Source of the DNA: a virus
Lineage: Duplodnaviria; Caudoviricetes
Reading direction: 5' to 3' (one strand)
DNA: 51,407 nt
IMG/VR virus record: IMGVR_UViG_3300025723_000058
Coordinates: 1 to 51,407 of that record
Shown one piece after another: positions 3,904 to 8,172 of this stretch. Numbering within the stretch: position 1 is the first letter of the stretch; each line of letters opens with the position of its first letter. Position numbers and translations under genes: made by a program. The notes below the pieces were generated by a model, which did not search any database, was not told the DNA's origin, and saw only the letters and a program-made list of their open reading frames with translations.

Positions 3904-3930
3904 AAAAAAAGGATACCCAATGTATCCTTT
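3904..3930 (-). terminator. Intrinsic terminator ending the tRNA array
   Basis: AAAGGATACATTGGGTATCCTTTTTTT; near-identical to 2128-2154. Confidence 0.8.
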
Positions 3931-3960
3931 AACGTAATATTTACCCACAAATAATCGCTG

Positions 3961-4048
3961 CGGAGAGCATCGAAATCGAATCGAATTCAGCTTTCGCCGA
4001 ACGTCACGCTTAGCAGGCGGACCCCATCGCCATCAGGGTTTACTCTCC
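3961..4048 (-). tRNA. tRNA-Ser(GCT), 8/4 fold
   Basis: GGAGAGTA/TGCTCTCC 8-bp acceptor, CT-GCT-AA loop, long variable arm, 4-bp T stem, G73. Confidence 0.8.
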
Positions 4049-4058
4049 ATTTTAACTG

Positions 4059-4132
4059 TGGTCCTACGGGGATTCGAACCCACGAAGTACCGCTTAGAAG
4101 GCGGTCAGTTTATCCAGTTAGCTTATGGGACC
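4059..4132 (-). tRNA. tRNA-Arg(TCT)
   Basis: Cloverleaf; ACCGC-CT TCT AA-GCGGT; GGTTCGAATCC. Confidence 0.92.
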
Positions 4133-4137
4133 AATTT

Positions 4138-4191
4138 AATAGGGTGTAAAGGTTCTGCCTTACACAAGGTGCGCTTACCTTACTTCCTATT
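4138..4191 (-). ncRNA. Small three-way-junction RNA
   Basis: AATAGG/CCTATT closing stem, hairpins AAGGT/ACCTT and GTGTAAGG/CCTTTACAC. Confidence 0.4.
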
Positions 4192-4193
4192 AG

Positions 4194-4273
4194 TACATAC
4201 AATGAGATTCGAACTCATATCTTCCACTCCAATTACGATTAACAACTTAGAAGGTTGACTCGGCTATGTATGC
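4194..4273 (-). tRNA. Non-canonical D-armless tRNA-like RNA, anticodon TCT
   Basis: GCATACA/TGTATGT acceptor, short linker, CAAC-CT TCT AA-GTTG, long 3' linker with TAATTGG, canonical T arm. Confidence 0.7.
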
Positions 4274-4276
4274 ATA

Positions 4277-4429
4277 TTATTTTTTATACTCTTCACCAAT
4301 ATTATTATCAGTATCCGCATTATCAAATGCACCACCATACTTAACCATATCTTCAAACCATATTGGTAATGTTTTACGTAAATCCAATTTATTTATCAAT
4401 AAATCTTCTAAAATTTCTCCTACTGTCAT
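4277..4429 (-). CDS. Small hypothetical protein (50 aa)
   Basis: Hand translation MTVGEILEDLLINKLDLRK...EEYKK; fills gap between tRNAs. Confidence 0.5.
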   Translation of the reverse strand: MTVGEILEDLLINKLDLRKTLPIWFEDMVKYGGAFDNADTDNNIGEEYKK

Positions 4430-4430
4430 G

Positions 4431-4503
4431 TAGTCCTGTCGAGATTCGAACTCGAAAAAATTGTTTAGGAAACAACTATGATTTCCAATTTCATCACAGA
4501 ACC
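4431..4503 (-). tRNA. tRNA-Arg(CCT)
   Basis: Cloverleaf; GTTGT-TT CCT AA-ACAAT. Confidence 0.85.
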
Positions 4504-4508
4504 ATATT

Positions 4509-4679
4509 TTACTTTAACTCATTTAACTGTTTTCTCAAGTCTTGAATCTTAGTTAAGTAATCACTTACACTTATTTCAGCGGTGTTTGATACTTTTTGTT
4601 TAAGATTTAACTTCATTTCATTTTCGAGAAACTCAATCCTTTCTTCAATCTTCTTTCTTTTTTTATCAATCTTTGCCAT
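4509..4679 (-). CDS. Small coiled-coil hypothetical protein
   Basis: MAKIDKKRKKIEERIEFLE...; ATG 4679 avoids overlap with tRNA. Confidence 0.6.
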   Translation of the reverse strand: MAKIDKKRKKIEERIEFLENEMKLNLKQKVSNTAEISVSDYLTKIQDLRKQLNELK

Positions 4680-4681
4680 AG

Positions 4682-4756
4682 TGGTCTCTAAGGGATTCGA
4701 ACCCATTAGCCTCCTGATTCGTAGTCAGGTGCTCTATCCAGTTGAGCTAAGAGACC
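4682..4756 (-). tRNA. tRNA-Arg(ACG)
   Basis: Cloverleaf; CCTGA-CT ACG AA-TCAGG. Confidence 0.93.
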
Positions 4757-4761
4757 AAATA

Positions 4762-4873
4762 AACATAGTTACTGTACTCGACAACAGCTTGTATAATCAT
4801 CACAATTTTTTAACGTGGTACGGACACTAACTCCACCTGATATTAGTTCTTTTTATATCACATTTACTATGCT
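4762..4873 (-). ncRNA. Multi-hairpin structured RNA between tRNAs
   Basis: AGCATAGT/ACTATGTT closing stem enclosing 3-4 hairpins. Confidence 0.4.
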
Positions 4874-4874
4874 G

Positions 4875-4946
4875 TGGTCCTAAAGCGACTCGAACGCTTA
4901 TCAAATGTTTCGAAGACATCTATCCAATCCATTGGACGATAGAACC
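4875..4946 (-). tRNA. tRNA-Arg(TCG)
   Basis: Cloverleaf; GATGT-CT TCG AA-ACATT. Confidence 0.88.
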
Positions 4947-4951
4947 AAAAG

Positions 4952-5028
4952 TCCCGACAGTGAGATTCGAACCCACGTGTAACCAACTACTCTTTCAACG
5001 CCTTATGAGAGCGAGGAGATATGTCGGG
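4952..5028 (-). tRNA. Non-canonical D-armless tRNA-like RNA, anticodon CAT
   Basis: CCCGACA/TGTCGGG acceptor, CGCT-CT CAT AA-GGCG, linker with TAGTTGG, GTGGG-TTCGAAT-CTCAC. Confidence 0.7.
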
Positions 5029-5034
5029 ATAATG

Positions 5035-5110
5035 CGGACAATGTAGGACTCGAACCCACAACCCTGTGGCTAACAACCACCTGCTCTATCCAGTTAATAG
5101 CTAATTGTCC
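5035..5110 (-). tRNA. tRNA-Asn(GTT)
   Basis: GTGG-TT GTT AG-CCAC; G73. Confidence 0.82.
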
Positions 5111-5122
5111 AATATAAATTTG

Positions 5123-5194
5123 AGGATTGTGAGAATTTCGAAATCTCGACCTGAACCTTAACAGGGTCCTGCTCTGCCTCTGAGCTAACAATCC
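5123..5194 (-). tRNA. tRNA-Asn(GTT), U73
   Basis: GGACC-CT GTT AA-GGTTC; atypical discriminator. Confidence 0.82.
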
Positions 5195-5258
5195 ATGGGT
5201 ATCTATGAACGTTTTAAACCGTGTGCGGACCATAGATAGTCTTATTCGCAACCTTCTG

Positions 5259-5329
5259 CTCTCCCAACAGGGGTCGAACCTGTAATAACTGATTAACAGT
5301 CAGACGTGATACCATTTCACCATAGAAGA
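5259..5329 (-). tRNA. tRNA-Asn(GTT)
   Basis: CTGA-CT GTT AA-TCAG; U1-A72, G73. Confidence 0.88.
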
Positions 5330-5336
5330 ATGTATG

Positions 5337-5426
5337 TAGTGCAGATGGGATTCGAACCCACATTTGATATTATCTCAAGATACCATTACAAGTGTGATGT
5401 GTATAAGACACCGCTGCTACTGCACT
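5337..5426 (-). tRNA. Non-canonical D-armless tRNA-like RNA, anticodon TAT
   Basis: AGTGCAG/CTGCACT acceptor, GGTGT-CT TAT AC-ACATC, long linker with TAATGGT, canonical T arm. Confidence 0.7.
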
Positions 5427-5432
5427 ATATTG

Positions 5433-5506
5433 TGGACACTACTGGGCTCGAACCAGTGACTTCAATGTTATGAGCATCGCACTCTAACCAACTGAGTTAA
5501 GCGTCC
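5433..5506 (-). tRNA. tRNA(CAT), Ile2 or elongator Met
   Basis: Cloverleaf; CGATG-CT CAT AA-CATTG; G1-C72, A73. Confidence 0.88.
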
Positions 5507-5700
5507 ATTTGTTGGAAATACATCTTTACCTTAAGATAAGACATAAAATCTAATTTTTCACTTAAAAGACGTTGAATATTCTCAACATTACCTACATAAA
5601 GCGGAGCATTATCTGCTAACTCTTTAGCAATTTCGATTGTTGTATTCTTAGGAACACCACAGTCGGCCAAAATCTTAATTACTATACTTGTCATATCCAT
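5497..5700 (-). CDS. Small hypothetical protein
   Basis: 67 aa ORF filling inter-tRNA gap; stop lies inside next tRNA. Confidence 0.55.
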   Translation of the reverse strand: MDMTSIVIKILADCGVPKNTTIEIAKELADNAPLYVGNVENIQRLLSEKLDFMSYLKVKMYFQQMDA

Positions 5701-5701
5701 G

Positions 5702-5784
5702 TTGTGACGGTGGGACTCGAACCCACATCGTTCTTACGAACCTGCCGTATCAGAGCAGTGCCTAAACCATTCAACCACGTCACA
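5702..5784 (-). tRNA. tRNA with GAT (Ile) anticodon and long variable arm
   Basis: CTGCT-CT GAT AC-GGCAG; variable hairpin GTTC-GTAA-GAAC; A73. Confidence 0.8.
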
Positions 5785-5935
5785 ATTTTTCTCTAATTGA
5801 TAATACATCCTTCTCAAATATACCTCTTATTGTTTTCTTATCTTCAAAAGACATTCCACAATAAACCAAAGTGTTATTAAGTGTTCTAAAGATGCTCATC
5901 ACTAAAATTTCACCCATTTTATCCTTTACAATCAT
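5780..5935 (-). CDS. Small hypothetical protein (51 aa)
   Basis: Hand translation MIVKDKMGEILVMSIFR...REKL; fills gap. Confidence 0.4.
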   Translation of the reverse strand: MIVKDKMGEILVMSIFRTLNNTLVYCGMSFEDKKTIRGIFEKDVLSIREKL

Positions 5936-5937
5936 TT

Positions 5938-6015
5938 TGGGCGACACAAGGGAATTGAACCCTTAACTACTAGTAAAAGGTGGCTCGACCACCCGTTGCA
6001 ATCCATGCTGCCGCC
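5938..6015 (-). ncRNA. tRNA-like RNA without a proper anticodon loop
   Basis: GGCGGCA/TGTCGCC acceptor, AAGGG-TTCAATT-CCCTT T arm, GGTGG-TCGAG-CCACC hairpin. Confidence 0.55.
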
Positions 6016-6062
6016 ATTTATTTATTTTTAATTATTCTACCTTTAAACCAACCACATATAAG

Positions 6063-6083
6063 GTACAAAAAAGTCAAGGGTGG
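6063..6083 (-). repeat. 21-bp exact repeat, copy 1 (copy 2 at 11031-11051)
   Basis: gtacaaaaaagtcaagggtgg identical at both sites. Confidence 0.9.
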
Positions 6084-6154
6084 GTACCGCTGGAGTCGAA
6101 CCTGCAACCGCCGCCGTATCAGAGCGGTGCTCTAACCAGTTGAGCTAGATACCC
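6081..6154 (-). tRNA. tRNA-Ile(GAT)
   Basis: Canonical cloverleaf; CCGCT-CT GAT AC-GGCGG. Confidence 0.93.
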
Positions 6155-6167
6155 ATTAAAAATCAAG

Positions 6168-6258
6168 GGTGTACGATGGGATTTGAACCCACGATGTTTG
6201 ATTAAATCGCATTCTGCTTCACAGGCAGATTCCTTCGACCACTCGGACCACGCACACC
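6168..6258 (-). tRNA. tRNA-His(GTG) with long variable arm
   Basis: G-1:C73; TCTGC-CT GTG AA-GCAGA; about 20-nt variable region. Confidence 0.82.
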
Positions 6259-6266
6259 ATATACTA

Positions 6267-6416
6267 GTCTTGGTAAAGGGATTTGAACCCTCAAATTGGT
6301 GACTAATCCAACTATTATTTTCATTGTCATCTGGTTTACTAAAGCAGGTCTTCCATAAATGGTCCAAATACTTTCCTCAAACAGTAATCTCGTTTACCGA
6401 TTCCGACACACCAAGA
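6267..6416 (-). tRNA. tRNA-like gene with about 60-nt insertion in the anticodon loop
   Basis: TCTTGGTG/TACCAAGA acceptor, D arm, AGTTGG/CCAATT variable arm and T arm intact; anticodon loop interrupted. Confidence 0.6.
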
Positions 6417-6421
6417 TAATG

Positions 6422-6509
6422 CGGAGAACGTAGCAATCGAAGCCAGCCCAACTTAATGGGTTCTTGTTTTCCAAACAAGCGAGAGCCACCTGCTCTTCCT
6501 TCGCTCTCC
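6422..6509 (-). tRNA. tRNA-Ser(GGA), 8/4 fold
   Basis: GGAGAGCG/CGTTCTCC, CTTGT-TT GGA AA-ACAAG, variable arm, TGGC/GCTA 4-bp T stem, G73. Confidence 0.8.
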
Positions 6510-6516
6510 AAAAATG

Positions 6517-6588
6517 GGTGTAACCACGGTATCGAACCGAGTTCTTCTCCTTCACAGGGAGACGCTTCACCTTAAAGCTTGAAACACC
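6517..6588 (-). tRNA. tRNA-His(GTG)
   Basis: G-1:C73; TCTCC-CT GTG AA-GGAGA; U-U mismatches in acceptor. Confidence 0.8.
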
Positions 6589-6592
6589 ATGT

Positions 6593-6678
6593 TGGAATAT
6601 GTGGGATTCGAACCCACGGAACCACCCAAGGTTCGCCTGTTTCGCACAGGTGCTTTAAACCACTCAGCCAATATTTCC
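6593..6678 (-). tRNA. Degenerate class II tRNA, probably Ser(CGA)-like
   Basis: Good D, variable and T arms; loop TG CGA AA lacks U33; bulged acceptor; A73. Confidence 0.55.
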
Positions 6679-6680
6679 AG

Positions 6681-6769
6681 CGGTGAGACTCGGAATCGAA
6701 CCCAGAAGCCAGCTTTTAACCGACACGGCTGTTTTCAAGACAGCTGCCTTACCGTTAGGCTACCTCACC
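6681..6769 (-). tRNA. tRNA-Ser(TGA)
   Basis: GCTGT-CT TGA AA-ACAGC; long variable arm; G73. Confidence 0.9.
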
Positions 6770-6797
6770 GTATATACTAAATTTCACTATTTAGTTG

Positions 6798-6944
6798 CTG
6801 ATAGGGGAGGATTCGAACCATCCATGTTGAGATTAGGAACAGAACATATCGCTACCGTGTGGTCAACCCATTATTCTGTCTTTATTTCTTTATCAACGCC
6901 TCCGAGACAAGGAGGTGCGTCTGCCAAAATTTCGCCACCTATCA
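6798..6944 (-). tRNA. tRNA with GTC (Asp) anticodon and about 75-nt variable region
   Basis: TGATAGG/CCTATCA, G73, CCTCC-TT GTC TC-GGAGG, TTCGAAT T loop. Confidence 0.7.
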
Positions 6945-6954
6945 ATTTATTGTG

Positions 6955-7055
6955 CACGTAAAATAGGATTTGAACCTATGCGGAGACCTAACATAAATGT
7001 TATATATCTCAGTAGGGTTGGAACCTACCACCTTCGACCACTCGGTCATTTACGT
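6955..7055 (-). tRNA. tRNA-Trp(CCA) with about 32-nt variable arm
   Basis: GTAGG-TT CCA AC-CCTAC; GAGAT/GTCTC and TAACAT/ATGTTA variable stem; G73. Confidence 0.78.
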
Positions 7056-7522
7056 ATATTATTTTTACCAGAATAAGTGTCTGTTTGACTATGACAGTTT
7101 GGACATAAAAATCTTAAATTTTCAACCCTATTATCTTTATGATTACCATTTTTATGGTCAAGTTGTAAAACAATTTGATTACCAAGCCATGTATCTTTCA
7201 CTGTACAATGGTTACCAGAACATTCATAAACTAATATTTTTTCATTTACTAATCTTTTTTTTAATCTTCGCATATTTTGATAAGTGGAATTTTCAACTAA
7301 AATATCTTTTAAATCTATTTTAGGTCCAATTATACTATTACCCTTATTTTCATAAACTGGTGGTGTAATACCGAGTCTTATACAATGATTTTTAAATGTT
7401 TTATATGCACCAGAACCATTTGAGGCAACATTTAATTTTTTTAATATTTCATTAATTGAAGTTGATTTTTCAATTAATAAATTCATTTCTTCTTTAGTTA
7501 AATTTGCGATTTTCATATTCAT
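7046..7522 (-). CDS. HNH homing endonuclease
   Basis: LQLDHKNGNHKDNRVENLRFLCPNCHSQT. Confidence 0.9.
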   Translation of the reverse strand: MNMKIANLTKEEMNLLIEKSTSINEILKKLNVASNGSGAYKTFKNHCIRLGITPPVYENKGNSIIGPKIDLKDILVENSTYQNMRRLKKRLVNEKILVYECSGNHCTVKDTWLGNQIVLQLDHKNGNHKDNRVENLRFLCPNCHSQTDTYSGKNNIRK

Positions 7523-7572
7523 TTATAAATAAATATCTATAAATAGCGAAAAAGACAAACTTAACGCATTCG

Positions 7573-7644
7573 CACGGGTAGAGAATTTTGAAATCCCGAC
7601 ACCTAGTTTTGGAGACTAGTGCTCTGCCTCTGAGCTATACCCGT
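7573..7644 (-). tRNA. tRNA-Trp(CCA)
   Basis: Canonical; CTAGT-CT CCA AA-ACTAG; G73. Confidence 0.9.
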
Positions 7645-7659
7645 GTGTTTCCCGTAATG

Positions 7660-7836
7660 TCAAATAACTGTGTATACTATAATCTTTCCTCTTTCTCTAA
7701 CAAACTTTAGCTCACCAGTATAACCTTGTTCTAAAGATACCTTTTTAAATCGGTCATGAATTTCGTCAAAATCAGTTTCTAAATCTTTTGGCTTCACAAC
7801 ACCAAGCTTTTTATATCTTTTTTCTTCTTCGTCCAT
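7660..7836 (-). CDS. Small hypothetical protein (58 aa), first gene after attenuator
   Basis: Hand translation MDEEEKRYKKLGVVKPKDLETDF...IIVYTVI. Confidence 0.55.
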   Translation of the reverse strand: MDEEEKRYKKLGVVKPKDLETDFDEIHDRFKKVSLEQGYTGELKFVRERGKIIVYTVI

Positions 7837-7840
7837 GTGT

Positions 7841-7876
7841 AAAAAAAACCTCTGATTCTTATGAGTCAGAGGCTTT
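7841..7876 (-). terminator. Intrinsic terminator / putative attenuator
   Basis: AAAGCCTCTGACTC-ATAA-GAATCAGAGG-TTTTTTTT. Confidence 0.85.
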
Positions 7877-7932
7877 CGATATTTTTAGTGATTTAATATT
7901 AGATAGTATTAATATCACTCGATAGCATGACT
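7864..7932 (-). promoter_or_regulatory. Putative antiterminator hairpin
   Basis: AGTCA/TGACT, GCTATCGA/TCGAAAGC (7 of 8), GTGAT/ATCAC and TTAATA/TATTAA nested pairings sequester the terminator 5' arm. Confidence 0.65.
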
Positions 7933-8003
7933 TGATTTCCTGAACGACTATTATTATGTCTCCAGTTAATCGAATTAATCATATTGTTTATGTTTACTAT
8001 CAT
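7899..8003 (-). CDS. Putative attenuator leader peptide (34 aa)
   Basis: MIVNINNMINSINWRHNNSRSGNQVMLSSDINTI between promoter and terminator. Confidence 0.7.
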   Translation of the reverse strand: MIVNINNMINSINWRHNNSRSGNQVMLSSDINTI

Positions 8004-8024
8004 TGTGATAAAATTTTTCTTGTT

Positions 8025-8052
8025 ATTAATAAATATATGCAAATATACGAAA
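8025..8052 (-). promoter_or_regulatory. Composite promoter of tRNA array
   Basis: TTTCGTATATTTGCATATATTTATTAAT: TAnnTTTG -7 element plus TATTTAT; identical to 9570-9597. Confidence 0.75.
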
Positions 8053-8172
8053 AGTTTTTTAATTGTCAAGTTTTTTTTAAACTTTTTTTTTGACAACCTT
8101 TTAAAGAACTCTTATTTTTTATTTACAATGCAAATATACGAACTAATTTTGAATTGGACAAATCTTTTTTTT

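Follow-up and report, generated by a model that had tools for sequence, protein, structure and literature searches.

A predicted ribosome-mediated attenuator in front of a phage tRNA array, with a leader that follows the tRNA content downstream

The stretch of DNA analyzed, hereafter called the window, is a whole virus record of 51,407 nt. Its genes include those for a primase, SbcCD, a sigma factor, ClpP, DnaJ, a tmRNA and homing endonucleases; of the 32-34 ORFs that were scanned, none was identified as a capsid gene. Relatives detected via a kinase gene that adjoins the element described here reside on contigs that reach several hundred kb in length, so the window represents part of a huge phage. 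All four sequencing runs that contain at least half of the words of the region, among the 24 runs listed, are freshwater metagenomes, and one of the four may be the source of the window. All 24 runs are represented by contigs only. In the single RNA run among them, the pieces listed span parts of the tRNA array, and no ends, strand or level can be read from them. When 50,697 phage records were searched with the leader, both as protein and as DNA, no cultured relative with a real match was found, and the array matched these records only via its HNH gene or single tRNAs. The host is probably a member of the Bacteroidota, as judged from its TAnnTTTG promoters and from the absence of Shine-Dalgarno motifs when compared with the Bacteroidetes promoter consensus given in a published description (PMC6847099).

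The features discussed below are listed in Table 1. The array contains tRNAs for Trp (two), Ser (anticodons TGA, CGA, GGA, and GCT), His (two), Ile (GAT twice, TAT), Met/Ile2 (CAT, two), Asn (three), and Arg (TCG, ACG, CCT, and TCT twice), besides three atypical tRNA-like elements, an HNH gene (7522-7046) and small ORFs. For several anticodons, ARAGORN or Rfam was silent or gave another call, and the triplet was read by hand; some calls in the array will be wrong since ARAGORN was used at a relaxed threshold. Genes for amino-acid synthesis or aminoacyl-tRNA synthetases, as would be expected in an amino-acid operon, are not located downstream of the leader. Within the array, TAnnTTTG is matched imperfectly at two sites, 7563 and 5822.

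The first-pass annotation had read eight amino acids from this array. Seven of them (W, S, H, I, M, N, and R) stand, whereas Asp was rejected as a monitored residue: the 141-nt element that had been taken for an Asp tRNA was called by neither ARAGORN nor Rfam, the single Asp codon of the leader is codon 30, beyond the predicted sensing zone, and the Asp tRNAs of relatives are located in another array than the one for WSHIMNR. The loop of the 141-nt element is kept while its stems change in 15 loci. Leu, which might be represented by the irregular element of 148 nt, was left out of the matched set.

Elsewhere in the window, the promoter type of the leader is found in front of the tmRNA gene, which would fit the theme as tmRNA rescues stalled ribosomes, and in front of a gene for a DUF2828/DUF7788 protein. 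It also precedes a separate tRNA unit, with Met-CAT tRNAs at 9412-9340 and about 9338-9268 and a terminator at 9202-9177, in which no leader was detected; a structured-looking stretch (~9480-9415) precedes these tRNAs.

Table 1. Location of the genes and predicted elements in the window.
Feature	Position	Strand	Basis and remarks
478-aa DUF2828/DUF7788 protein	20127-18691	-	PHROGs annotation RNA-binding; leader-type promoter upstream
tmRNA	11406-11046	-	Rfam; behind promoter type shared with the leader
Separate tRNA unit	9615-9177	-	Near-identical promoter, two Met-CAT tRNAs, terminator
Upstream tandem promoter-like site	8129..8161	-	TTG at 8161, TAnnTTTG at 8138; Bacteroidetes consensus
Main promoter-like site	8040..8069	-	TTG at 8069, -7 element 8047-8040
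Leader ORF, 34 codons	7899..8003	-	Predicted sensing zone, codons 2-21; A at -3, no Shine-Dalgarno
Hairpin I inside leader	7934..7971	-	Fold; ~codons 11-23
Predicted antiterminator	7864..7932	-	7932-7919 pairs with 7879-7864, including the terminator 5' arm
Intrinsic terminator hairpin and T8 tail	7841..7876	-	MFE and centroid folds; -14.6 kcal/mol
58-aa ORF directly behind terminator	7660..7836	-	Similar ORFs after the terminator in several relatives; no family match
tRNA array, 3.7 kb	3958..7644	-	ARAGORN, Rfam, hand reading
141-nt tRNA-like element	6940-6800	-	GTC triplet in TTGTCTC loop, pyrimidine at position 37, very long extra arm
148-nt irregular tRNA-like element	6415-6268	-	Imperfect anticodon arm, perhaps GAG; found in 5 loci
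79-nt irregular tRNA-like element	6016-5938	-	CGA-type loop; found in 5 loci
Terminator-like site closing array	3908..3930	-	Terminator scan

Between promoter and array lies a short ORF with a plausible start context. The promoter is present as annotated before, but the span then given (8025-8052) covers only its -7 element and misses the TTG as well as the tandem site. Re-reading of the ORF confirmed that 28 of its 34 codons, including 20 of the first 21, specify W, D, S, H, I, M, N, or R, and that K, E, F, and Y are absent. Among codons 2-34, 27 of 33 belong to the eight-residue set, with a background of 0.377 in the long ORFs of the window (binomial P = 3e-7). None of 20,000 nucleotide shuffles reached this score (mean 14.0, SD 2.9), and neither did any of 12,131 33-codon windows of the long ORFs, the best of which scored 22. 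When the set is restricted to the seven residues, codons 2-21 match at 19 of 20 positions (P = 5e-9, for a zone that was picked after the data had been seen). The matches of individual codons to array anticodons, which had also been pointed out, were rejected as separate evidence; they add little to the match in residues, given that hardly any isoacceptor of these residues is missing from the array. The leader peptide has no match in Pfam.

The terminator, proposed earlier ahead of the array, is present in both the MFE and the centroid fold, although a simple terminator scan did not list it. The predicted antiterminator is a long imperfect hairpin of -16.6 kcal/mol, calculated for a transcript cut in the terminator loop, and it encloses a hairpin at the stop codon (7919-7887). 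Four pairings between the end of the leader and the terminator arm had been suggested. Two of them, AGTCA/TGACT and GCT/AGC, indeed invade the arm, whereas GTGAT/ATCAC and TTAATA/TATTAA pair with the spacer that follows the stop codon.

Folding with a ribosome footprint, a check advised in the first-pass annotation, supports a switch in the model. On the cut transcript, the probability that the 5' arm of the terminator is sequestered is 0.69 with the ribosome at codons 2-20, and it drops to 0.43 at codon 21, 0.20 at codon 22 and ≤0.10 from codon 23 onwards. Thus, the permissive zone ends where the matched codons end. By computation, the antiterminator excludes the terminator and stays free when a ribosome is stalled on the control codons. 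On the full transcript, however, the terminator prevails wherever the ribosome is placed (P about 1.0). Control must therefore be kinetic, and the switch would depend on kinetic trapping and on the coupling of transcription to translation.

The analogy with trp and his attenuation drawn before holds in part. The sensing zone coincides with the matched codons in the fold, but a four-segment arrangement, with a 1:2 hairpin competing with the 2:3 antiterminator, was not found. Hairpin I ends at 7934, the antiterminator starts at 7932, and the two coexist in the fold. Therefore, an untranslated leader is predicted to allow readthrough rather than super-attenuation. Hairpin I, whose outer stem shifts register among relatives, could possibly be a pause hairpin for RNA polymerase. 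It is formed by the segment encoding a W-R-R-N-S block that is highly conserved in the focal leader family.

Among 161 kinase-anchored loci, 52 homologous arrays, which form a redundant set, were visible. A leader and a terminator precede 50 of them (49 detected in one pass and L063 in another). The two exceptions are L055 (16545-16700), where the leader has lost its start but antiterminator and terminator are kept, and L143 (7380-7440), where a terminator is present without a leader. Two leaders in tandem are found in L023 (at 15422 and 16982). In L181/L182, the same leader and array are located on both strands of one 7-kb contig, which may reflect either an inverted duplication or an assembly artefact. 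A tRNA with a CTA anticodon (Pyl according to ARAGORN), often accompanied by a Cys tRNA, is found near the kinase gene in L005, L009, L012, L020, and many other loci but not in the window; possibly, it is an amber suppressor.

In a set of 40 distinct leaders of the focal family, duplexes of the 3' part with the leader's own terminator arm are more stable than those with the arms of other leaders (-13.8 vs. -9.8 kcal/mol; 0/20,000). In three of the eight sequences of the window's subfamily, AGTCA:TGACT is replaced by GGTCA:TGACC, an exchange of A:U for G:C. A count of antiterminator pairs in fixed columns provides modest support, with 71% of the cells paired and 16 two-sided changes, in two of seven pairs, in an alignment in which subfamilies, including that of the window, are out of register. 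In the leader part of the alignment, 177 of 178 gaps are multiples of three, a number that is partly forced by selection and derives from rows that are not independent.

A DNA pattern that fixes only five start codons and the ends of the terminator, leaving the rest free, matches 55 viral loci, 51 of which have tRNA genes on the same strand within 1.3 kb downstream. Two looser patterns gave many non-leader matches, and their loci were still passed to the leader detector. Together, the kinase-anchored loci, the loci from the virus scans and the window yielded 115 distinct leaders in 32 families, a conservative grouping since one of these families, chained together by single linkage, contains 51 leaders. 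Across these leaders, TAnnTTTG is found within 90 nt upstream in 88 cases, A is at -3 in 104, and an SD-like motif is present in only one; the terminator hairpin follows the stop codon at a median distance of 23 nt.

The first-pass annotation had called for a comparison of leader composition with array content in related phages, and its outcome is strongly positive. With one representative for each of the 32 families, the fraction of codons 6-20 that match the own array is 0.62, vs. 0.285 ± 0.026 after shuffling (maximum 0.39; 0/20,000). Conversely, 0.98 of the amino acids of an array are found in its own leader, vs. 0.68 after shuffling. Matched codons are concentrated in the predicted permissive zone (264/427 vs. 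59/231 after the zone, in 28 leaders). The duplex of the leader with its own terminator arm has a mean of -13.9 kcal/mol in the 32 families, vs. -9.2 for non-cognate arms; however, a leader's own arm gave the best of the 32 duplexes in only 12 families, and in several families it did no better than a non-cognate arm. Comparison of the loci shows that promoter-like site, leader, terminator and array are conserved together, that leader composition follows array content, and that the 3' part of the leader is complementary to its own terminator arm.

Two near-complete relatives, G001 (100% complete at 368 kb) and G002 (86% at 306 kb), were analyzed in their tRNA-bearing stretches. Each has four arrays, for WSHIMNR, CVL, FEDA, and QKPGYT, which together cover all 20 amino acids; these arrays also contain a few stray tRNA calls from the relaxed threshold. 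Each array is preceded by its own promoter, matching leader and terminator. In the eight leaders, 10-15 of codons 6-20 belong to the own set and at most five to any other. Smaller clusters (Met-CAT pairs, CTA/Cys, and Leu/Phe) have promoters and no detected leader, and a promoter-like site is located inside the WSHIMNR array of G001; so, gating is not universal. Three leader/array pairs lie within 3 kb in L075. In other phages (L322, L350, and L196), one long leader with most amino acids precedes a near-complete tRNA set, or the code is partitioned in other ways.

The same DNA pattern yielded 78 matches in 185,579 prokaryote genomes, none of which has a tRNA gene on the same strand within 1.3 kb downstream. 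Ten of these, picked by eye, have residue-rich leaders, and the downstream protein belongs in all ten cases to enzyme families of amino-acid metabolism or sulfur assimilation. Therefore, the architecture is that of ordinary bacterial attenuators, here pointed at tRNA genes. These predicted attenuators of Bacteroidota and other bacteria precede trpE, metY-type sulfhydrylase, cysK, hisG, leuA, aroB, pheA-like, DAHP synthase, and sulfite/nitrite reductase-like genes. They share with the phage element an M-K/R-T-x-N type of start, a similar leader length, a similar distance from stop codon to terminator and the richness in cognate residues, whereas same-strand tRNA genes within 1.3 kb downstream are found only in the phage case. 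The phage element might descend from such cellular attenuators.

In the attenuators of ilvGMEDA, thr, trp, his, leu, and pheA, a short leader is rich in control codons, antiterminator and terminator are alternative structures, and the position of the ribosome is the read-out; in the trp attenuator, super-attenuation occurs when the leader is untranslated. The phage leader resembles those of the ilvGMEDA and thr type in its control codons and alternative hairpins. It differs from them in being phage-borne, in preceding tRNA genes rather than synthesis enzymes, in covering seven amino acids at once, and in the lack of a competing 1:2 hairpin and of predicted super-attenuation; moreover, the genetic code is divided in relatives among four units of this kind. 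T-box riboswitches bind tRNA directly, with one specifier each, and act via a terminator and an antiterminator. The phage element would likewise sense tRNA status via such structures but, unlike a T-box, it has no match to a T-box or riboswitch in Rfam, whether the gathering score is applied or E values of up to 5 are allowed. A cryptic tRNA L-array operon is reportedly controlled by a protein repressor. This operon is a spare tRNA array tied to translational stress, and the text that describes it contains neither "attenuat" nor "leader" (PMC8421152). The tRNA-Tyr of phages T5 and SP15 counters retron-Eco7, a case of a phage tRNA replacing one destroyed by a defence system, for which the expression level matters; a strong promoter is described and the same two terms are absent from the text (PMC11555353). 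No description of tRNA genes controlled by leader-peptide attenuation was found in the literature searched, which excludes most subscription papers.

Based on conservation and co-variation, together with the modelled folds, the element is likely a ribosome-mediated transcription attenuator that would turn on the W/S/H/I/M/N/R tRNA array when decoding of the corresponding codons slows. The leader would be translated by host ribosomes while the transcript folds under kinetic control. When decoding is fast, the ribosome would move past codon 22, upon which the antiterminator would melt, the terminator would form and RNA polymerase would stop at 7841. If any of the W, S, H, I, M, N, or R codons were decoded slowly, the ribosome would be held upstream, and the 3.7-kb array would be transcribed. 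The phage's own tRNAs may then restore decoding and shut the array again, thus closing a negative feedback loop. The trigger would most likely be the loss or overload of functional tRNA, caused by host anticodon nucleases or by the demands of infection. Such loss makes better sense as a trigger than amino-acid starvation does, because additional tRNA would make up for a shortage of tRNA but not for one of amino acids.

Alternatively, the element might sense the translation state in general: any failure to translate the leader, whether by blocked initiation, ribosome inactivation, antibiotics or host shut-off, would open the array, and the matched codons would only tune the response. Consistent with this option, the antiterminator still forms when the ribosome is absent or at the first codons because hairpin I does not overlap it, and both alternative hairpins are retained in the start-less L055. 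However, a non-specific sensor would have no need of four different leaders in one genome, each of them matched to the array behind it, and we regard this option as unlikely. It is very improbable that the terminator passes a constant fraction of polymerases as a fixed dosage element, with the leader as a relic of a captured host attenuator: dominance of the terminator at equilibrium, the existence of host attenuators that share the start pattern and the spacing, and the two arrays without an intact leader would fit, but a relic would not be rewritten to suit array content in 32 families, nor would it keep its cognate antiterminator pairing. Hardly more can be said for a ligand-sensing arrest peptide, or for direct tRNA binding as in T-boxes, since the conserved W-R-R-N-S block that could speak for them also forms hairpin I, unrelated peptides use the same architecture, and Rfam gave no match.

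On balance, it seems plausible that these huge phages run a full tRNA-surveillance circuit, in which the 20 amino acids are split among a few arrays and each leader test-translates its own codon set. Cleavage or exhaustion of any host tRNA would then switch on the matching replacement block, as an inducible and self-limiting counter-defence.

Codon compensation, decay of host tRNAs and defence nucleases have been considered as reasons for the presence of tRNAs in phages, and a built-in sensor makes this question testable. If the mechanism is true, the leaders would list the tRNAs that the phage monitors, and each leader would report which tRNAs fail during infection and when. Leaders could also help to check the anticodon calls of odd phage tRNAs, and they would serve as compact reporters, provided by nature, of toxins and defence systems that target tRNAs. 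The principle of attenuation would thereby be extended from enzymes to tRNA genes, in a feedback loop that acts on the decoding pool itself.
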